Source: Ignavibacteriales bacterium
GTDB lineage: Bacteria > Bacteroidota > Ignavibacteria > UBA10030
Direction of reading: 5' to 3'
NCBI GenBank assembly: GCA_026390575.1
Contig: JAPLFR010000010.1
Span: forward strand, 10,146 to 74,145
Length of the DNA stretch: 64,000 bases
Every line of letters begins with the position of its first letter. Position 1 is the stretch's first letter. A model generated the notes under the pieces. The model worked only from the letters and a program-made list of their open reading frames with translations. It did no database searches and had not been told where the DNA came from. Both the position numbers and the translations under genes were made by a program. Shown one piece after another: positions 12,051 through 64,000 of this stretch.

Positions 12051-12363
12051 AAAAAGAGTGACATCTCTCAATTTGCTTGCGTTATGCGACCAAGGGAATG
12101 ATCAATATCCGCTTATTTGAAATATTCTGTTGAAAATTATTATTTGAGTGATAAATATCGAAAATTGAGAGAGAAATGAGTGATATAACTTAAAAGCTCA
12201 TGGAATATGAAATTTTTAAATGAGATAGAATCGGCGAATAATTGTAAGACGAGAGTATGAAATAACCCTCGTTTTCTTCCCGCCAGAAGAAGGCGGGATT
12301 CTGAAAACGACAAACGACTTAGTTTCGCCCTGATGGGCTCACTAAGTCGTGGCGTTTTCGAAG

Positions 12364-18521: not shown

Positions 18522-19561
18522 TGGCGAAGTCATTTAACAAAATCTTAGTTATTCAGACTGCATTCATTGGCGACGCGATTCTCACACTGCCTCTTCTCCA
18601 AGCCCTTAAGCTCAATTATCCGCAATCTTCAATTGATGTCATTGTCGTTCCACGGGCAGCGGAAATATTTGCTCATCATCCCGCCATCTCCAAGATTATC
18701 CAGTATGATAAACGCGGAAGTGATAAAGGATTAAAAGGTTTGTGGCGGCTCAGAACCAAACTCAGTGCGCATCATTATGATCTGATTATTGTTCCTCATC
18801 GATCTTTACGAAGCGCGCTTCTTACTTGGCTCTTGAAACCAACGCTCAGCGTCGGATTTGATAGAAGTGCGGGACCATGGTTATTTAAGAAAAGAGTTCG
18901 CTATAATCCTTCAGATCATGAAATTGAACGGAATCTTTCATTGTTGAGTCCGTTGAAACTTCCTCCACATGAGGCCGAATTACCGCGGCTCTATCCTTCA
19001 AATCAGGATGCGCAAATTATCGATTCTCTTATGAATGATAATGGTTTGAACCGGTATACAAATATTGTAGCAATAGCCCCTGGCACGATATGGAATACGA
19101 AACGCTGGCCGGCAGAAAGATTCGCTTCCCTCTGTAAACAAATCGCTTCAGAAAACGTTGCTCTTGTTCTTGTCGGAGGAAGTGAAGATGAGGTATTGAG
19201 CAAAGAAATCATAGAGATTGCACAAGCAGCACATGTATTCAGCGTTGCAGGCAAGCTTTCACTCCTTCAGTCTGCCGAGTTGATTCGTCGCTGCAACGTA
19301 TTGATTTCGAACGACAGCGCACCGATGCACATTGCCGTTGCTGTGGGAACCCCGGTCGTTGCCATCTTTGGAGCAACAGTTCCCGAATTTGGCTTTGCAC
19401 CGCGCGGACCTAGGGATGTTGTGATAGAAACAAAGGGACTTCAGTGCCGTCCATGTTCAAGCCATGGCGGAAATATGTGCCCTATAAAAACATTCGAATG
19501 CATGCTGTCAATTACTCCAGAAGTTGTTGTGAGTAAAGTGAGGAAATTTCTTCAAAAGTAA
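18521..19561 (+). CDS. GT9-family LPS heptosyltransferase
   Basis: KILVIQTAFIGDAILTLPL near the N-terminus and SNDSAPMHIAVAVGTPVVAIFG near the C-terminus are typical of RfaF/WaaC-like enzymes. The GTG at 18521 abuts the upstream stop; the track ORF begins at 18485. Confidence 0.8.
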   Translation: MAKSFNKILVIQTAFIGDAILTLPLLQALKLNYPQSSIDVIVVPRAAEIFAHHPAISKIIQYDKRGSDKGLKGLWRLRTKLSAHHYDLIIVPHRSLRSALLTWLLKPTLSVGFDRSAGPWLFKKRVRYNPSDHEIERNLSLLSPLKLPPHEAELPRLYPSNQDAQIIDSLMNDNGLNRYTNIVAIAPGTIWNTKRWPAERFASLCKQIASENVALVLVGGSEDEVLSKEIIEIAQAAHVFSVAGKLSLLQSAELIRRCNVLISNDSAPMHIAVAVGTPVVAIFGATVPEFGFAPRGPRDVVIETKGLQCRPCSSHGGNMCPIKTFECMLSITPEVVVSKVRKFLQK

Positions 19562-19656
19562 GGTATTGGAACATTACTTTTTATGGTAGGAATTGACAGA
19601 GAACGAAATGGTCTTAATCCCCACAGATACTGATTCGGATTTATTAATTGGATCAG

Positions 19657-19685
19657 TTGAAATATTAATAAGAAATTATTATAAT
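19657..19685 (+). promoter_or_regulatory. Consensus sigma70-type promoter for the retron-like ncRNA/operon
   Basis: TTGAAA (19657-19662), a 17-nt spacer, then TATAAT (19680-19685). The predicted TSS, 7 nt downstream, falls on G19692, the first base of the a2 repeat. Confidence 0.6.
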
Positions 19686-19691
19686 TCTGAT

Positions 19692-19864
19692 GAGCCGCAT
19701 CGCTTTCTAGCTCTAATTGCTCAGTTATGAATTGAGCATGGACGGTGTTTAGCCATCCACTAAAATGTTTCATGACATACTAGGCGAGAGAAAAGCTCCC
19801 GCCTTGCGCTGCTTCGGCTTGAGCTTTTCTCTCGCCTCGCAGAAAGTAGAAAGCGGTGTGGCTC
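19692..19864 (+). ncRNA. Retron msr/msd-like non-coding RNA
   Basis: a2 GAGCCGCAUCGCUUUCUA (19692-19709) pairs over 18 bp with a1 UAGAAAGCGGUGUGGCUC (19847-19864). The only two non-Watson-Crick positions are G-U wobbles, and only on the + strand. G19710 follows a2. There is a small hairpin at 19718-19738 and a long 17-bp perfect hairpin at 19782-19798/19821-19837. Confidence 0.7.
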
Positions 19865-19881
19865 TCCTTATTTGAATTCCT

Positions 19882-20787
19882 ATGTCTACCATACCTTTTC
19901 CAAATAAATTTCTAGAAAAAATAAAGAAGGTGATCTTGAATAAAGACACTTTCTTGAAATCTGATTCAATAATAGTTTTTGCCTGCGGAGCTAAACCAAA
20001 CGTTACTAATCCGGGCGGTCGAGATAGAGTTATCGAATATGCTGAAAAAAATCTTACACAGTTTCAATTTTTAATGGCGGAACGTTTTTTTTCATTTTTC
20101 CAGAATCATGATAGAATAGATTTGTTATCGTTAGAAAATAAGTTAGCAGAATTTTCTGATTGTATTCTAATTATTCTGGAGAGTGAGAGCACTTTTGCAG
20201 AACTCGGTGCTTTTACTAATAGTGATGAATTAGCTAAGATCGCTCTAGTTATTAATGATATTAAGCATGATAAGAGTGATTCTTTTATTAATCTTGGGCC
20301 ATTAGCTAAAATAAATAAAATATCAAACTTTCGACCAGTTATCCAAGCTAACATGGAAAGCATCTTGACTGTAATTTATGAAGTCCAAAAAAGACTTGAA
20401 AAAATTGAAAGAAAAAATAACATCCGGCTTGATATTAGTACATATGAGAAGTTTTTAGCATGTTCACGGAAGGCAAGAACATTTTTACTTTTGGATCTAC
20501 TGGCATTATTCTCTCCGTTACGCTATTCAGAATTGATTGAAATATTACACTTTATTTATGGAGATCATAGTATTGATATTAATCTTGAAATGGGACTCTT
20601 AGCTGCATTTGGGTTTGTAAGCAAACAAGATGATTACTATTTCCGAACATTAGGTGATAGTAAATTATTCTTCTTCTTCCAAGGTTTGAACATTATTCGA
20701 TTCCGATCAGATATTATTAATTGCTACTTCAAGCTCCGTAAATCTCGTGAACGTCTTGAAATATTAAAGGGACGTACTATCCATTAA
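19882..20787 (+). CDS. Putative retron effector: N-terminal nucleoside 2-deoxyribosyltransferase-like Rossmann domain plus C-terminal wHTH-like domain
   Basis: 301 aa. The pattern SIIVFACGAKP ... LAEFSDCILIILESESTFAELGAF resembles NDT-like/RcaT-type effectors. The C-terminal FLLLDLLALFSPLRYSELIEIL looks like a winged helix. It lies 7 nt upstream of the RT gene. The assignment rests on pattern only. Confidence 0.55.
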   Translation: MSTIPFPNKFLEKIKKVILNKDTFLKSDSIIVFACGAKPNVTNPGGRDRVIEYAEKNLTQFQFLMAERFFSFFQNHDRIDLLSLENKLAEFSDCILIILESESTFAELGAFTNSDELAKIALVINDIKHDKSDSFINLGPLAKINKISNFRPVIQANMESILTVIYEVQKRLEKIERKNNIRLDISTYEKFLACSRKARTFLLLDLLALFSPLRYSELIEILHFIYGDHSIDINLEMGLLAAFGFVSKQDDYYFRTLGDSKLFFFFQGLNIIRFRSDIINCYFKLRKSRERLEILKGRTIH

Positions 20788-20794
20788 GAGAATT

Positions 20795-21739
20795 ATGGCT
20801 AAGGAATTATTAGATATAATATCAGAATTTCTAGGATTCGATCGAAATGAAGTTTTAGATATTGTTAATAAGGCACAGACTTCATACAAAAAATATAATA
20901 TTCGCAAAAAGAGAGGAGGTACACGAATCATCCATCATCCATCAAAGCAGACTAAAGCTATTCAACATGCATTGATGGAGACAGTATTAAGCAAACTACC
21001 AATACATGAGTGTGCGTACGCATATCGTCGTGAATTTAGATCTCCTTTGCGTAGAAACGCAGAAAAGCATTCTTTATTTTCTTATTCTATCAGAATCGAT
21101 TTCAAGGACTTCTTTCCCTCAATTAAGCCTAATGATTTGTTCTCTGTAATCGACAAAAATTCATCAATGGAATTAGATACATCGAATAAGGAGTGTTTAA
21201 CAAAAGCTTTATTTGTGAAGAGCAAAGACAAAAAACAAGGATTAGCGGTTGGTGCGCCATCATCGCCATTGATTAGCAATATTGTAATGTATGATCTCGA
21301 TCAAGAAATCCAAAAAATTGCTGGATCAATTTCGAGAAATAACGCTTACACGAGATATGCAGATGATTTGGTTTTCTCGACCAATAATAAAGGAGATTGT
21401 CGAAAATTTTACAATAAAGTAAAATCTCTTATTAAGAAAACGCAATCACCACGATTGATAATTAAAGAAGATAAGACAGTGTATTTATCTAGGGGAACAA
21501 GAAGAATGGTTACAGGAATTACAATCACGCCTGATCAACATATTTCATTAGGTCGCAGGAGAAAACGTTATATTAAAAAACTTATATTCGATTACAAGAA
21601 TAATAAGATAGAACCTAAAATTAAATCTTATCTTGAAGGATTCATTGCGCACATACTAGATGTTGAACCTGATTATTACAATAAACTTGTGATTAAATAT
21701 GGTGGAGAAACACTAGATCGGATTCGGAAACATAAATAA
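20795..21739 (+). CDS. Retron-type reverse transcriptase
   Basis: 314 aa with KKRGGTRIIHHPS, NAEKH (NAxxH), IDFKDFFPSI, GLAVGAPSSPLISNIVM, YTRYADDLVFS (YADD) and RRMVTGITI (VTG). There is no maturase, endonuclease or other extra domain. Confidence 0.88.
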   Translation: MAKELLDIISEFLGFDRNEVLDIVNKAQTSYKKYNIRKKRGGTRIIHHPSKQTKAIQHALMETVLSKLPIHECAYAYRREFRSPLRRNAEKHSLFSYSIRIDFKDFFPSIKPNDLFSVIDKNSSMELDTSNKECLTKALFVKSKDKKQGLAVGAPSSPLISNIVMYDLDQEIQKIAGSISRNNAYTRYADDLVFSTNNKGDCRKFYNKVKSLIKKTQSPRLIIKEDKTVYLSRGTRRMVTGITITPDQHISLGRRRKRYIKKLIFDYKNNKIEPKIKSYLEGFIAHILDVEPDYYNKLVIKYGGETLDRIRKHK

Positions 21740-21837
21740 AAATCATTTGCCTTTGGTAATAAGCATAAAACCGTATTTATGAATCATTTGAATCTCTTCG
21801 AAAACTTCTCTACATTAAAGTACGAACCAGCATTCTT

Positions 21838-21917
21838 GCGCCCGTAGTTCGAAAATTGCCCGCGAACGCAGTGAGTGGAGGCAATTTTCAGAATCCCGCA
21901 AACGAAGTGAAGCGGGA
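21838..21917 (+). repeat. tRNA-Arg(CCG) 5'-end fragment plus TCCCGC/GCGGGA hairpin repeat
   Basis: GCGCCCGTAG (21838-21847) is identical to the first 10 nt of the tRNA at 21938 and is followed by a TTCGAA T-loop-like stretch. AATTTTCAGAATCCCGCAAACGAAGTGAAGCGGGA (21883-21917) is related to the 47-bp repeats at 51933 and 52019. Confidence 0.6.
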
Positions 21918-21937
21918 CTCGACGGAAATAAAAAAAT

Positions 21938-22011
21938 GCGCCCGTAGCTCAGCTGGATAGAGCGACAGCCTCCGGAGCTGTAGGCCAGGCGTTCGAATCG
22001 CCTCGGGCGCA
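21938..22011 (+). tRNA. tRNA-Arg(CCG): tRNA-Arg (anticodon CCG)
   Basis: GCGCCCG-TA-GCTCAGCTGGATAGAGC-G-ACAGC-CTCCGGA-GCTGT-AGGCC-AGGCG-TTCGAAT-CGCCT-CGGGCGC-A. Confidence 0.9.
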
Positions 22012-22049
22012 CAGAAATAATGAATTTATGAACTGATTTAGGAATCGAC

Positions 22050-22739
22050 ATGCTTAAACCGCAGAAAAAAATTTCCAGAAGAGAAATCAAAGAAGATAAA
22101 CTCGTAACCAAGTATTTTGAAGCACGCCAATGGATAGATGAAAACACCAAGATCCTTTCCTATGTTGGAATCGGGATTGCAGGCCTGGTGATCATCGGTT
22201 TCCTCTGGAGTAAAAGCCGGGCTGATTCAAATCTCAAGGCAACAGCCATGCTCGCGAAGGTAACGCCGTACTATGACGAAGGAAGATATGATCTTGCTAT
22301 CAACGGTGTTCCGCAGGAAGGTACTCAGGGATTGCAGGCTGTGGTAGATGAACATGGCAGTACGCAGGCAGGTGAAATTGCAAAGCTCTATTTAGCAAAT
22401 TCCTACTTCGCACTGAAGAGTTATGATAAAGCTCTGAACACGTATGATGATATCAGTGTATCTGATAAGATGATCACGGCCTCTGCGTATGCAGGAATGG
22501 CGGCTTGTTATGAAGCGAAAAGCGATTTCAGCCATGCAGCTTCTTATTTTGAAAAAGCGGCATCGAAAAATATGACGGTTATGCAGGGACCGGAAAATTT
22601 GCAGAGATCTGCGACAAACTATGCAGCGGCTGGGAAGAAGGAAAAAGCCATCGAACTTCTTCAGACCCTAAAAAAAGAATTTCCTACTTCGCCGTATGCC
22701 CGCGATGTTGAACGTCTCATAGCTGAATACAGCGTATAG
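22050..22739 (+). CDS. Membrane-anchored tetratricopeptide-repeat protein (YfgM-like)
   Basis: 229 aa with a basic N-terminus, one TM segment (ILSYVGIGIAGLVIIGFLW) and TPR-like helical repeats. Confidence 0.7.
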   Translation: MLKPQKKISRREIKEDKLVTKYFEARQWIDENTKILSYVGIGIAGLVIIGFLWSKSRADSNLKATAMLAKVTPYYDEGRYDLAINGVPQEGTQGLQAVVDEHGSTQAGEIAKLYLANSYFALKSYDKALNTYDDISVSDKMITASAYAGMAACYEAKSDFSHAASYFEKAASKNMTVMQGPENLQRSATNYAAAGKKEKAIELLQTLKKEFPTSPYARDVERLIAEYSV

Positions 22740-51932: not shown

Positions 51933-52065
51933 CTAAGATTACTGTAATTTTGAGAATCCCGCAAAGGCGAAGTCGATGCGGGATAGCCAAAATCCTTCCT
52001 TGTGAATCAAGACAAAAACTAAGTTTACTGTAATTTTGAGAATCCCGCAAAGACGAAGTCGATGC
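51933..52065 (+). repeat. Two 47-bp direct repeats downstream of tRNA-Phe
   Basis: 51933-51979 and 52019-52065 are identical at 45 of 47 positions (CTAAG[A/T]TTACTGTAATTTTGAGAATCCCGCAAAG[G/A]CGAAGTCGATGC). Copy 1 completes the hairpin ATCCCGC..GCGGGAT; copy 2 does not. Confidence 0.8.
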
Positions 52066-60200: not shown

Positions 60201-63200
60201 CAAATTGGACCGTTGCTTCAGTATCGGTCTTGCGCAATACAAGCACAACCGGTTCTATATCCTTTGCGACAAAAGTGGATTTTGCTATAGGGGCAGGTTC
60301 GTATGGAGTATCCATCGGTGATATGAATGGAGACGGAAACCCTGATATCGTGGTGACCAATAATACCAGTGCTACCGTATCGGTGCTGCGAAATACAAGC
60401 ACCACCGGTGCAGTTTCCTTTGCCGCAAAATCGGATTATACCACAGGGTCAGGTGTGTTAGGCGTATCTACCTGCGATATGGATGGAGACGGAAAACCTG
60501 ATATTGTGGCTGCCAATGGCATCAACAATACCGTATCAGTCCTCCGTAATACTGTCGGCCGTTCGGATGGTCTTGTTGCTTGGTATCCATTTAATGGTAA
60601 TGCAAACGATGAGAGTGGAAACGGAAACAATGGGACAGTGAATGGAGCGACACTCACAACGGATAGATTGGGAAATTTAAACAATGCTTACTCCTTAAAT
60701 GGTTCAGGAGATTGGATAGACATAGGGAATACTACTCTCTGTGGAAATTCACATCAACTTACTTTGTCATGTTGGGCAAAATCTCCAAGTCTCGCCTCTG
60801 TTGGTGCTGCGCTCATTCAAAGGGCTGATGATCGATATTTAGGTGGCACTGCGACACGTGTATTCAGATTAGAGGTTACACCAACAGGACAGATTGGATT
60901 TGGTGTAAATAATATTCCACCTTCAAATGGCGTTGGAGTTCTTTCACAAGCTGGTTCATTTCAGTATGACAATTATTGGCGACATATTGTTGCTACATAT
61001 GATGATGTTCAAGGTTGCAAAATTTATCTAAATGGGATCAAGATTGTTGACACAATTCTTACGTTCGGAACTGTATCAAATCTGTCTATTCGCACAGCAA
61101 TTGGGATAAAATATAATAGCATTCCCTCTCAATGGTTCAAAGGTGTGCTAGATGACATCCGCATTTACAACCGCGCGTTGAGTGAAACGGAAATTAATTC
61201 GCTTTATCATGAAGGTGGATGGACAAGCAACACCGCTCCCGCTATTCCTCAAAACCTCACCGCTATCGCCGGCAACGGCCAGGTTACACTCAAATGGAGC
61301 AAGAACACAGAGAGCGACTTCCTGAGATATCGCATTTATCGAGGTACCTCGTCTGGTCCGACAATTGTGTCGGACTCTACAACAGCGGGCATCTCAGATA
61401 CCTCAAAGGTCATAACCGGATTGACGAATGGAACGATGTATTATTTCCGCATCACGGCTGTGGATAGTGCAAGGTTGGAGAGTGCGTACAGCAACGAAGT
61501 AAATACAACGCCATCAGTGCTCAACGCACAACGAGAATATAATCCCGATGCTAACACAGTTCTCTTAATGCACATGGATGAAGCTGCAGGGAGTAGTGTG
61601 TCCGATGCAAGCAGTTTTGGTAACAACGGAACAGCAAGTGCAGGTGCAAAGATCACTGAATCCGGCCGCTTCGGAGGAGCACGCTCTTTCGATGGTTCTC
61701 AAAATGCCCAGATAGAAATCATGAATTTTAAAAACCTGACATTCGGTACACAGGATTTTACAGCTGAAGTGTGGATTAATACCACATCAACCAATTTTTC
61801 ACAACCTTATATTGAACATGGATGGGGTCCAGTAAAATATTGGCGGCTTGGAATTGCAGATGGATTTCCTATTTTCACTATGAGCAATAGCGGGAATGGT
61901 ATTTCATTAAGCAGTTTCGTAAAACTTAATGATGGCCGCTGGCATCATCTGGCGGTGGTGAAAAAAGAAGGTGTCGCATACCTGTATGCAGATGGAATGC
62001 TGCAAGCTCAAAATGATATTTCTTCATTTGGTAATATAGATTCTCTTGGCGGATCATTCTTAATAGGCGAAAGTGCATTCTCGGTAAACACTATCCTGGA
62101 TGAAGTAAGAATCTCGAAAATTGCCCGCTCACCGAAGGAGTTTGATATTCAGCTCCCGCCGGTCAATCTCGCTATAACAGTTAATGGAACAACTGCCAGC
62201 CTGAATTGGCAAAATGGCGGCGGTGCGCTACCACTCATGCGGTACAAAATTTATCGCGGGGCTGACTCTACAAATGTAGCACTTGTCGATTCGACGACTT
62301 CTACATCTCGTACTCAGTCCGGTCTGGTGACCGGACTCTACTATTATCGCGTGAGCGCAGTGGACTCGACAGGATTTGAAGGAGCGAAGAGTTTTGCCGT
62401 GAAGGCGACAATAAGTGGAGCATCATCGCCACCAATCATTATCGGATACTCTCCGGGGTGTAATAGGATTGATGTTTTAAAGAATGCAACCATCGCTGTC
62501 ACATTTGATAAAGATATTGATCAGGCTACGATTTCCTCATCCTCAATTTGTATCAATGGAACACAAAGTGGTAAGCATATATTTACTCAGAATTATAATA
62601 GCTCGACAAAAACCCTTACCCTTTATCCGGACGTACAATTCAGAGTGGGCGAAATCATTACGGTAACGGCGACACGTAGAATTAAAAATCTATCAGGTGA
62701 TTCATTTGCTCATGCATTGACATGGAGCTTTACGATAAAAACAAATACAGCCAGTGGAATATTTACCCAGACTTCTACACCAGGAGTAGGGAATGATCCA
62801 CAATCGGTCGTTGCAGGAGATTTTGATAGGGATGGAGATATCGATCTTGCGGTTGCGAATAATACTTCTAACACAGTTTCTATCCTCTTGAACAATGGTA
62901 GCGGAACGTTCATACAGAGTTCCACACCGGCAGTCGGATACACTCCGAACTCAATCACAGCGGGAGATTTTGATGGAGATGGAGATCTCGATCTTGCGGT
63001 TGTGAATAATGTTTCCGGTACAATTTCAATTCTGTTAAATAATGGCAGTGGAATCTTTACAAAAAGTTCTACGGTGAGTGTGGGAAGTGATCCGAAATCA
63101 GTCACCGCAGGAGATTTTGATGGAGATGGAGATATCGATCTTGCAGTGGCGAATTACTCTTCCAATTCAGTCTCGATCCTTTTGAACAATGGCAGTGGAA

Positions 63201-64000
63201 TATTCACACAAACATCTACACCGGCAGTAGGTAATAATCCACAATCAGTCACTGCAGGAGATTTTGATGGAGATGGAGATATCGATCTTGCGGTGGCGAA
63301 TAGTAACTCCAATACAGTTTCAATCCTATTGAACAATGGCAGCGGAACATTCACACAAAGTTCCACGACGGGTGTGGGACCCGTTCCCTGGTCAATCACT
63401 TCAGGAGATTTTAACGGAGATGGATATCTCGATCTGGCAGTAACGAATGATGGTAACCCTAATACTGTTTCGATCCTCTTGAATAATGGCAGCGGAACCT
63501 TTATACTGAGTTCCTCGCTGAGTGTGGGCGGAACTCCGCGTTCAATTACTGCAAGTGATCTTGACGGAGATGGAGATATCGATCTTGCAGTAGCTTGTAA
63601 TTATGGTTCGAATATAGCTGCAATATTTATTAACAATGGCAGCGGAACATTCACACAGAGCTTCAGGCCGGGAGTGGGGGGAAGTACACCCTGTTCAATT
63701 ACTGCAGTAGATTTTGATGGAAATGGAACTATCGATCTTGCATCGGTGAATAGTATTTCAAATACAGTAATAATTTTGTCAAATGGCTCTATAACACCGA
63801 CGACATTGCTTGGTGAGTACGCTACCGATGCCAACACAGTTCTCCTCATGCACATGGATGAAGCGGCAGGGAGCACTGTTTACGATGCGAGCACCAATGC
63901 AAACAACGGGATGGCAACGGGAACATCGGTAGTCGAGGGAAGATTTGGGAAGGCACGGTATTTTGACGGCGGAGCAAATTATATTGATGTGCCCAATAGT
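57272..64000 (+). CDS. Giant modular surface protein, 3' end outside the window (at least 2243 aa)
   Basis: The frame is open from the ATG at 57272 (alternative 57308) to the window end, confirmed by hand at spot-checked junctions. It is absent from the ORF track because no stop falls in the window. Domain order is signal peptide, 13 BNR/Asp-box-like repeats, IPT/TIG, 7 FG-GAP, LamG, FN3, LamG, FN3, Ig-like, 7 FG-GAP, then the start of a third LamG. Confidence 0.85.
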   Translation, partial: METSLQNSTTLKMKTGNLVKRNLSDRLKRSESLKGTLTRFSLLLLLFTFFSQVALSQINWQQTNGPYGGIVRALAVSGSNLFAGTEGGGVFLSTDNGTSWSAVNTGLTSMYIYDLAISGMNLFAATDGGVFLSTNNGTNWNYYNTGLPNTLVFSFAISGTNIFAGTLNGVFLSTNNGLIWSEVNNGLTDKYVNDIVITGTNIFAGTNNGGIFLSTNNGASWTAVNSGLSILPGTGVYALVASGSNIFAGTWSGVFLSTNNGASWSAVNTGLTSTIIKALAMSGTNLFAGTTEGGVFLSTNNGATWSTASSGMSNTTVICLAVNPASGGSLFAGTLGSGVFLSTNNGGTWNAINGGLNAYKVTALLVKPAENGVGNPYLFAGTEYGGVFLSTDKGSNWTEVNSGLSGLANSQILSLAISGEYILAGTSGGLFLSTNNGSNWIAIKSGIPGIPINTLYANGANVFAGTGANGAFRSTNNGLSWSAINIGTSNLLVYDFIVSGTNLFAGTWEGIFISTDNGTSWSGANSGLTNTQVRCFATIGTNLFAGTNAGGVFLSTNNGLNWNATGSALNAIPIESLFADGTNLFAGTVSSGIYLSSNNGSSWAAVNTGMASKLILAFATIEHGLYAGTVNGLFVSALPGPYPLTITSFTPTSGPIGTTVTITGTNFNTTASNNIVYFGAVKATVTAATSTSLSVIVPTGATYAPITVTDTTTHLLVVSRIPFTPTFTGSPTIDANSFAAKVDFATGANPHHVSVSDVDGDGKPDIILTNYDGNTISVLRNTSTSGTVSFAAKVDYATGISPYEVSIGDVDGDGKPDIIVTNWASNTVSVLRNTCTSGTISFAAKVDFATGSAPRGVSIGDVDKDGKLDIIATNWSGNTVSVLRNTCTSGTVSFATKVDFATGAAPLGVSMGDVDGDGNPDIVIANGSSNTVSVLRNSSTNGAVSFAAKVDFATVTNPYGISIGDVDGDGNPDIVVANWTVASVSVLRNTSTTGSISFATKVDFAIGAGSYGVSIGDMNGDGNPDIVVTNNTSATVSVLRNTSTTGAVSFAAKSDYTTGSGVLGVSTCDMDGDGKPDIVAANGINNTVSVLRNTVGRSDGLVAWYPFNGNANDESGNGNNGTVNGATLTTDRLGNLNNAYSLNGSGDWIDIGNTTLCGNSHQLTLSCWAKSPSLASVGAALIQRADDRYLGGTATRVFRLEVTPTGQIGFGVNNIPPSNGVGVLSQAGSFQYDNYWRHIVATYDDVQGCKIYLNGIKIVDTILTFGTVSNLSIRTAIGIKYNSIPSQWFKGVLDDIRIYNRALSETEINSLYHEGGWTSNTAPAIPQNLTAIAGNGQVTLKWSKNTESDFLRYRIYRGTSSGPTIVSDSTTAGISDTSKVITGLTNGTMYYFRITAVDSARLESAYSNEVNTTPSVLNAQREYNPDANTVLLMHMDEAAGSSVSDASSFGNNGTASAGAKITESGRFGGARSFDGSQNAQIEIMNFKNLTFGTQDFTAEVWINTTSTNFSQPYIEHGWGPVKYWRLGIADGFPIFTMSNSGNGISLSSFVKLNDGRWHHLAVVKKEGVAYLYADGMLQAQNDISSFGNIDSLGGSFLIGESAFSVNTILDEVRISKIARSPKEFDIQLPPVNLAITVNGTTASLNWQNGGGALPLMRYKIYRGADSTNVALVDSTTSTSRTQSGLVTGLYYYRVSAVDSTGFEGAKSFAVKATISGASSPPIIIGYSPGCNRIDVLKNATIAVTFDKDIDQATISSSSICINGTQSGKHIFTQNYNSSTKTLTLYPDVQFRVGEIITVTATRRIKNLSGDSFAHALTWSFTIKTNTASGIFTQTSTPGVGNDPQSVVAGDFDRDGDIDLAVANNTSNTVSILLNNGSGTFIQSSTPAVGYTPNSITAGDFDGDGDLDLAVVNNVSGTISILLNNGSGIFTKSSTVSVGSDPKSVTAGDFDGDGDIDLAVANYSSNSVSILLNNGSGIFTQTSTPAVGNNPQSVTAGDFDGDGDIDLAVANSNSNTVSILLNNGSGTFTQSSTTGVGPVPWSITSGDFNGDGYLDLAVTNDGNPNTVSILLNNGSGTFILSSSLSVGGTPRSITASDLDGDGDIDLAVACNYGSNIAAIFINNGSGTFTQSFRPGVGGSTPCSITAVDFDGNGTIDLASVNSISNTVIILSNGSITPTTLLGEYATDANTVLLMHMDEAAGSTVYDASTNANNGMATGTSVVEGRFGKARYFDGGANYIDVPNS
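57456..59180 (+). repeat. 13 tandem ~41-43-aa BNR/Asp-box-like repeats (coding)
   Basis: Recurring unit LFAGT..GGVFLSTNNG.SW.AVN.GL, with S-T-(D/N)-N-G-x-x-W in every unit. Confidence 0.8.
59456..60565 (+). repeat. Seven tandem ~53-aa FG-GAP/VCBS-like repeats (coding)
   Basis: Recurring unit FAAKVDFATG..P..VS.GDVDGDGKPDI.V.N...NTVSVLRNTST.G.VS. Confidence 0.8.
62740..63790 (+). repeat. Seven tandem ~49-aa FG-GAP-like repeats, second block (coding)
   Basis: Recurring unit G..P.S.TAGDFDGDGDIDLAVAN..SNTVSILLNNGSGTF, with long stretches of nucleotide identity between units. Confidence 0.8.

Follow-up and report, generated by a model that had tools for sequence, protein, structure and literature searches.

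A 173-nt structured RNA upstream of a St85-family effector and reverse transcriptase is very probably the msr-msd RNA of a type II-A1 retron in an Ignavibacteriales-like bacterium

The 64,000-nt stretch analyzed here (the window), from an uncultured Bacteroidota/Ignavibacteriales-like host, contains a 173-nt segment whose two ends can pair with each other and which precedes a reverse transcriptase (RT) gene on the same strand. The question raised by this locus is whether the segment is the structured RNA of a retron, and if so, to which retron type it belongs. The features identified are collected in Table 1. Taken with the alternatives weighed below, they make it highly likely that positions 19692-19864 encode the msr-msd RNA of a complete type II-A1 (St85/Sen2-family) retron.

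Table 1. Features of the retron locus (window coordinates).
Feature	Position	Strand	Basis or detail
Low-GC island with the whole retron, 2.2 kb	19542-21767		about 32% GC vs 44%; between the heptosyltransferase gene and tRNA-Arg(CCG)
Sigma-70-like promoter (predicted)	19657-19685	+	TTGAAA 19657-19662, 17-nt spacer, TATAAT 19680-19685
Retron non-coding RNA (msr-msd; very probable), 173 nt	19692-19864	+	fold; sole R1 match in the window; shared consensus structure
a2, 5′ arm of the terminal helix	19692-19709	+	GAGCCGCATCGCTTTCTA; 18 bp with a1, including 2 G·U
Predicted branching (priming) guanosine	19710	+	bulged between the a2/a1 helix and C19711-G19846
msr hairpin 1	19718-19738	+	19718-19726 / 19730-19738; 9 bp, 3-nt loop, one G·U
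msr hairpin 2	19739-19759, core 19740-19758	+	GGACGGUGUUUAGCCAUCC; most conserved element; predicted RT thumb-binding stem-loop
msd stem-loop	19782-19837	+	19782-19798 / 19821-19837; 17 perfect bp and about 3 further bp
Predicted msDNA, about 77 nt	19769-19845	-	complement of the msd template; ends by R1 alignment to Ec86
a1, 3′ arm of the terminal helix	19847-19864	+	TAGAAAGCGGTGTGGCTC; conserved G19846 directly before
Effector (toxin) gene, 301 aa, STM3845/RcaT nucleoside-deoxyribosyltransferase (NDT)-like	19882-20787	+	PADLOC, NCBIfam
Retron RT gene, 314 aa	20795-21739	+	PADLOC, NCBIfam, Pfam RVT_1

The effector gene is full length, and its product was matched by PADLOC NDT_II-A (6.5e-48) and by NCBIfam NF038232 (STM3845_fam, retron St85 family effector protein), where it scored 173.6 bits and the cut-off is 100. 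Public assemblies list PF28093:STM3845 for this product. The RT was matched best by PADLOC RT_II-A (8e-103, 342 bits), with RT_I-A behind at 287.5, and passed NCBIfam NF038233 (retron_St85_RT) with 313 bits against a cut-off of 235. NCBI gives its relatives the name ‘retron St85 family RNA-directed DNA polymerase’. The NAEKH (residues 88-92), YADD (188-191) and VTG (239-241) motifs were invariant among 35 relatives, and the neighboring RT thus carries the NAXXH, YADD and VTG motifs generally expected of a retron. The RT gene is not adjacent to the RNA; the effector gene was found to lie between them, giving the order msr-msd, effector, RT, all on the + strand.

The terminal helix consists of 18 contiguous pairs, and only G19697·U19859 and U19700·G19856 are not Watson-Crick, so that the arms are reverse complements at 16 of 18 positions, exactly as had been counted from the letters. 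These two exceptions become C·A and A·C on the opposite strand, which also agrees with the original prediction. The a2 18-mer occurs in the window as the two arms only, with no further copy. Among inverted repeats of at least 16 nt lying within 300 nt in the 64-kb window, the msd hairpin ranked first, and the a2/a1 pair was one of the few 18-nt pairs at 89% complementarity; both are nested inside the same 173 nt. Pairing a2/a1 repeats that enclose the msr and msd, a general property of retrons, are therefore present. The suggested folding of the segment recovered the described helices at -88.2 kcal/mol (z = -8.5), and none of 200 shuffles folded as well. The - strand of the same region folds almost equally well (-82.6 kcal/mol, z = -8.6), and folding energy alone thus cannot pick the strand. 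The strand is set instead by the positions of the wobbles (four G·U pairs are possible on the + strand), by the gene context and by the covariance-model match described below. The earlier claim that selection acts on RNA structure in the orientation of the RT gene is accordingly borne out by wobbles, genes and model match, whereas the energy is silent on it.

At 18 bp, the a2/a1 helix is the longest among 50 family members (median 8); L013, one of the two nearest relatives, has 17 bp. In Eco1, engineered lengthening of the 12-bp a1/a2 raises RT-DNA yield (bioRxiv 10.1101/2021.03.26.437017). It is conceivable, though rather doubtful, that by analogy the helix in the window is a natural counterpart of the engineered extended a1/a2 of Eco1. 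If this were true, this retron and L013 would be unusually high msDNA producers, and useful compact editing chassis from an under-sampled phylum; such natural length in the terminal helix also has some interest for retron editing tools.

A conserved guanosine just 3′ of a2 is another general mark of retrons, and G19710 has both the expected presence and the expected position, in the CUA-G-C context described in the original prediction. The similar UUA-G-C context of Ec86, cited in the original prediction, is the one found in real E. coli genomes, the Ec86 RNA used here being 100% identical to 48 of them. G19710 occupies the column directly after the last a2 pair, and the R1 model (see below) puts the G of the Ec86 UUAGC, the established branch point, in the same column. 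The two preceding a2 columns (U, A) did not vary among the 50 sequences that have letters there. Each of the 50 full-length relatives has a G directly after a2 (UA-G in 40, UAC-G in 10), then a pyrimidine, and a G before a1. Because the pyrimidine/G rule holds in 50 of 50, G19710 most likely bulges out as a single base where the a2/a1 helix meets the C19711-G19846 pair, and it is predicted to be the 2′-5′ branch point. The ten relatives with the UAC-G junction (L019, L021, L032, L046, L048, L057, L058, L065, L073 and L075) have GGUA instead of GUA before a1, which amounts to one extra C-G pair beside the predicted branching G.

The 9-bp hairpin with a 3-nt loop expected downstream of G19710 was found in its predicted place (hairpin 1), and its G·U is a third pair possible on the + strand only. 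At this position, a hairpin of at least 5 bp is present in 48 of 50 relatives, with no conservation of sequence. The list of elements originally drawn up lacked hairpin 2, which is the most conserved element of the family. Its 19-nt geometry is constant across the family (GCCGGGUGUAUAGCCAGGC is an example from a relative), and its counterpart in the alignment with the E. coli Ec78-type RNA is the stem-loop spanning nt 28-48. In the cryo-EM structure of Ec78, this stem-loop, named RSLb, wraps the RT thumb (PMC12804668). By analogy, hairpin 2 is predicted to wrap the thumb of the RT encoded in the window as RSLb does.

The 17-bp perfect msd hairpin, with about 3 bp more inside its loop, was likewise located as predicted; it extends to 22-nt arms at 91% complementarity, and at least 10 pairs are present at this position in 48 of 50 relatives. 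Eco1 works with msd stems of 12-30 bp, a range that includes the stem in the window (bioRxiv 10.1101/2021.03.26.437017). With two msr hairpins and one msd stem-loop, the RNA has the general composition of retrons, which is 1-3 msr hairpins and one long, stable msd stem-loop (PMC7736814). As DNA, the predicted msDNA forms a hairpin of -23.3 kcal/mol (z = -5.6). Its ends were placed by analogy with those of the Ec86 msDNA: the 5′ end would be a dT copied from A19845, and the 3′ end would lie approximately at 19769, to within several nt. Termination depends on RNase H1 and on tertiary structure, and is not predictable from secondary structure (PMC8989520).

A metagenome search with the RT yielded 80 loci with RTs of 33-53% identity, many of which carry the effector upstream of the RT. 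A search of genome contigs with the RT gave a single distant locus (37% identity), and a protein search of a phage collection gave relatives of at most 38% identity and no characterized II-A1 retron. An unbiased stem search of the upstream regions revealed a recurrent plan, in which a2 ending in UA is followed by G, next by C or U, and then by a variable hairpin, a conserved 19-nt hairpin and a long hairpin; G-UA then enters a1, whose end lies 5-85 nt short of the first gene. Of 65 loci, 27 had UA-G...G-UA duplexes of 8 bp or more in the 160 nt ahead of the first gene; the density of such duplexes there was 2.6 per kb, versus 0.055 per kb elsewhere on the same strand. The raw count of such duplexes (47) was not above mononucleotide shuffles (20-44), and it is therefore the positional enrichment alone that is informative.

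A covariance model, R1, was built from 25 RNAs of I-A-like and II-A-like related loci, with the window and its two nearest relatives, L013 and L008, left out. On both strands of the 64-kb window, R1 gave one match, at 19702-19854 on the + strand (39.3 bits, E 3.2e-6), covering the full length of the model. The scan with a retron covariance model that had been suggested as a check thus finds the RNA, with a model self-built from related loci. R1 gave 52 matches over 86 sources; every one lies ahead of the effector or RT gene, on the strand of the RT. As positive controls, E. coli loci with Ec78 PtuA/PtuB effectors scored 94.1 and 84.3 bits. The Ec86 RNA was the top match within its own locus and at the right coordinates, although its score was low (14.1 bits; E 0.029 when 5 kb were searched with filters off). 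Rfam showed no retron family at gathering level in the window, where tRNAs alone were matched, and none around the locus at E up to 10, where chance-level microRNA-like matches to the hairpin appeared. In E. coli E2348/69 (L092, 4501-5033), R1 matched the msr and the a1 end only (62 bits), the msd being deleted; the RT gene there is cut to 133 aa and lies beside integrase fragments, and the locus looks like a decayed retron.

Covariation, another proposed check, was scored on A4, a model-based alignment of 52 sequences. The closest RT homologues (85%, 67%, 57% and 62% identity) lie outside it, since their contigs are short or have 71 nt upstream, and the covariation rests on distant relatives with RT identities of 33-53%. 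The junction-proximal a2/a1 helix was 96% paired, with compensatory changes at 6 of 8 pairs, and hairpin 2 was 100% paired, with compensatory changes at 3 of 6 pairs (one of them UA in 27 sequences, CG in 15 and GC in 10). Sliding the partner column by 1-3 positions reduced pairing to 21-48%. These percentages lean toward structure, because a duplex-plus-UAG filter selected the training RNAs and R1 itself favors paired columns. No such bias affects the enrichment by position, the restriction to one strand or the match in the window, which was left out of the model. The window, L013 and L008 have the full consensus fold in common, with 29 of 67 pairs compensatory. The closing pair of hairpin 2 is U·G in 28 of 52 members; read from the opposite strand it would be C·A, which supports the + strand. 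In an earlier MAFFT alignment (A2), hairpin 2 of the window was off by one column and appeared, falsely, to be 69% paired; A4 corrects this.

Together, these features suggest search rules for RNAs of types I-A and II-A1: a2 ends in UA and is followed by G and a pyrimidine, a variable hairpin precedes a second, 19-nt hairpin of the form GYC-N-GGY-loop-RCC-N-GRC, and a G stands before a1.

The locus can be read as a working retron as follows. The TTGAAA-17-TATAAT promoter agrees with the sigma-70 consensus at 11 of 12 positions and is the best such site in 19400-22200, although the promoters of a Bacteroidota-like host may differ from that consensus. Its position +7 is 19692, and transcription is predicted to begin at about this nucleotide, the first base of a2, where the original prediction had also aimed it. 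In the transcript, a2 would pair with a1, leaving G19710 single and bulged between this helix and C19711-G19846. The RT would dock on the conserved hairpin at 19740-19758, and the 2′-OH of G19710 would prime synthesis, with the RT copying leftwards from about A19845 through the 19837-19782 stem-loop. A stop near 19769 would yield a single-stranded DNA of about 77 nt, with a 17-20-bp hairpin, joined 2′-5′ to the msr RNA. The RT-msDNA complex would then hold the RcaT-like effector inactive, until msDNA damage or modification inflicted by a phage frees the toxin and the infected cell aborts the infection. The last two steps follow the Sen2 retron, in which RT and msDNA together are the antitoxin of RcaT (bioRxiv 10.1101/2020.06.22.160168), and which is activated once phage nucleases degrade the msDNA (PMC12804668).

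The same RNA could also be a decayed or silent leader, that is, the 5′ untranslated region of an effector-RT operon that no longer makes msDNA. Decay of this kind does occur, as E. coli E2348/69 keeps the msr next to a truncated RT after deletion of the msd. In the window, however, the RT is full length with its NAXXH, YADD and VTG motifs, the effector is full length, the helices are perfect or interrupted by wobbles only, and the match to R1 runs over its full length; we consider a silent leader improbable. The structure might instead belong to the gene upstream: a strong GC-rich hairpin about 220 nt past the stop codon of the heptosyltransferase gene could be its intrinsic terminator or attenuator. 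A terminator scan of the + strand was empty, however, neither hairpin is followed by a U-run, a near-consensus promoter stands between that gene and the structure, and relatives with the same heptosyltransferase gene are without the structure, which leaves a terminator very unlikely.

Equally slight is the chance that the palindrome acts at the level of DNA, as the terminal inverted repeats of a miniature mobile element or as a site at which the island recombines. The low-GC island, next to a tRNA gene, does have this 18-bp inverted repeat at its edge, which might invite this explanation, but the arm sequence is found nowhere else in the window, the mismatches wobble on one strand only, flanking direct repeats were not found, and the same architecture, with unrelated arms, occupies the same place before the genes in 52 loci. 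Least credible of all is that the region codes for protein. Two assemblies of this locus annotate a 73-aa ORF on the - strand (19552-19773) as a gene; no Pfam family matches the ORF, it covers the promoter and half of the structured RNA, and the conservation across relatives is structural and on the + strand. It is probably a false gene call. The msr-msd reading is thus retained. Standard pipelines give this locus as two proteins and the spurious opposite-strand ORF; this complete defense locus now also has its RNA gene, with a priming G and an msDNA template as predicted features.

The island occupies a slot that carries other cargo in relatives. With two of them, synteny is lost at 19541 and picks up again at 21768/21785. 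What lies between the heptosyltransferase gene and tRNA-Arg(CCG) varies, the slot spanning 5022-6006 in L090 and 1077-2598 in L091. One relative, with about 82% flank identity, carries a RES-domain toxin gene in this slot, and another carries a gene for a TPR protein. Neither an integrase nor flanking direct repeats were found at the island boundaries. Farther on, at 21837-21950, the first 14 nt of the tRNA-Arg (TGCGCCCGTAGTTC) occur a second time, 100 nt ahead of the real gene. Between the copies lies an 86-nt insert (21851-21936) with two hairpins, which is absent from both relatives. Parts of this insert reappear by other tRNA genes: 20 nt of it at 51946 and 52032, following tRNA-Phe, and 15 nt at 12293, close to tRNA-Asp. 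This pattern suggests a small repeat element that targets tRNA genes. Elsewhere in the window, at 63124-63585, an 18-nt near-palindrome (AGATGGAGATATCGATCT) recurs every 147-150 nt or so, and is probably part of a tandemly repeated unit.

It remains to place the retron among known systems. The original prediction had likened the RNA to that of Ec86. The contexts of the priming G do align, but the closest class proved to be St85/Sen2 (II-A1) together with Ec78, with Ec86 distant. The RNA of Eco1 (Ec86, type II-A3) follows a plan like that of the window, with a2 ending in UUA, then G and C, an msr hairpin (GGAUGUUGUUUCGGCAUCC) of the same 19-nt geometry, a long msd hairpin, and G-UAAGG entering a1; its effector is NDT-like and carries the PGAP name ‘retron St85 family effector’. 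The RT and effector of Eco1 are, however, only 30% and 28% identical to those of the window, the order of the locus is effector, RNA, RT, and R1 recognizes the RNA weakly, all of which sets the window apart from type II-A3. The Eco1 a1/a2 helix has 12 bp and its msd stem 25 bp (bioRxiv 10.1101/2021.03.26.437017). In the Ec86 locus of E. coli C (L089, 1591-2670), the effector coding sequence ends at 2514 and overlaps the first 14 nt of the Ec86 RNA (2501-2670), so that the Ec86 a2 arm lies inside the stop region of the effector.

Eco7 (Ec78, type I-A), whose structure has been solved by cryo-EM, belongs to the same RNA class, with R1 scores of 94 and 84 bits versus 39 for the window; its RSLb (nt 28-48) aligns with hairpin 2, and its RT is also named St85 family by NCBI. 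Unlike in the window, the Eco7 RNA lies directly upstream of the RT. The msr-msd architecture and the conserved branching G are generic to retrons, and types I-A and II-A1 have one RNA structure in common (PMC7736814); R1, which matches both the window and the Ec78-type loci, places the RNA in this class.

Type II-A1 was defined by Mestre et al. with Sen2, Vch2 and Eco3 (PMC7736814), and the window combines its marks: a St85-family RT, an STM3845/RcaT NDT-like effector, and the order msr-msd, effector, RT. The closest characterized systems are Sen2 (St85, of Salmonella Typhimurium) and Vmi1 (Vm85), with whose family the RT and effector of the window are grouped by the St85-family NCBIfam models. 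The published order of msr-msd, orf323 and ret, with two msr stem-loops, is the order found here (PMC11701397). By published description, these retrons also resemble the window in the G after a2 and in an msDNA formed by a single long hairpin. They differ in some dimensions and in host: the G is at RNA position 12 in Vmi1 and at position 19 in the window, after an 18-nt a2; the msDNA is 85 nt long, versus about 77 nt predicted here; and the hosts are gamma-proteobacteria, whereas the host of the window is an uncultured Bacteroidota/Ignavibacteriales-like organism. Sen2 is a tripartite toxin-antitoxin system with RT and msDNA as the antitoxin, and the same behavior would be expected, by analogy, of the retron in the window. 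This retron is a new type II-A1 member that leaves the current understanding of retrons unchallenged; it is known biology, an ordinary member of the same well-studied defense system as Sen2 and Vmi1.
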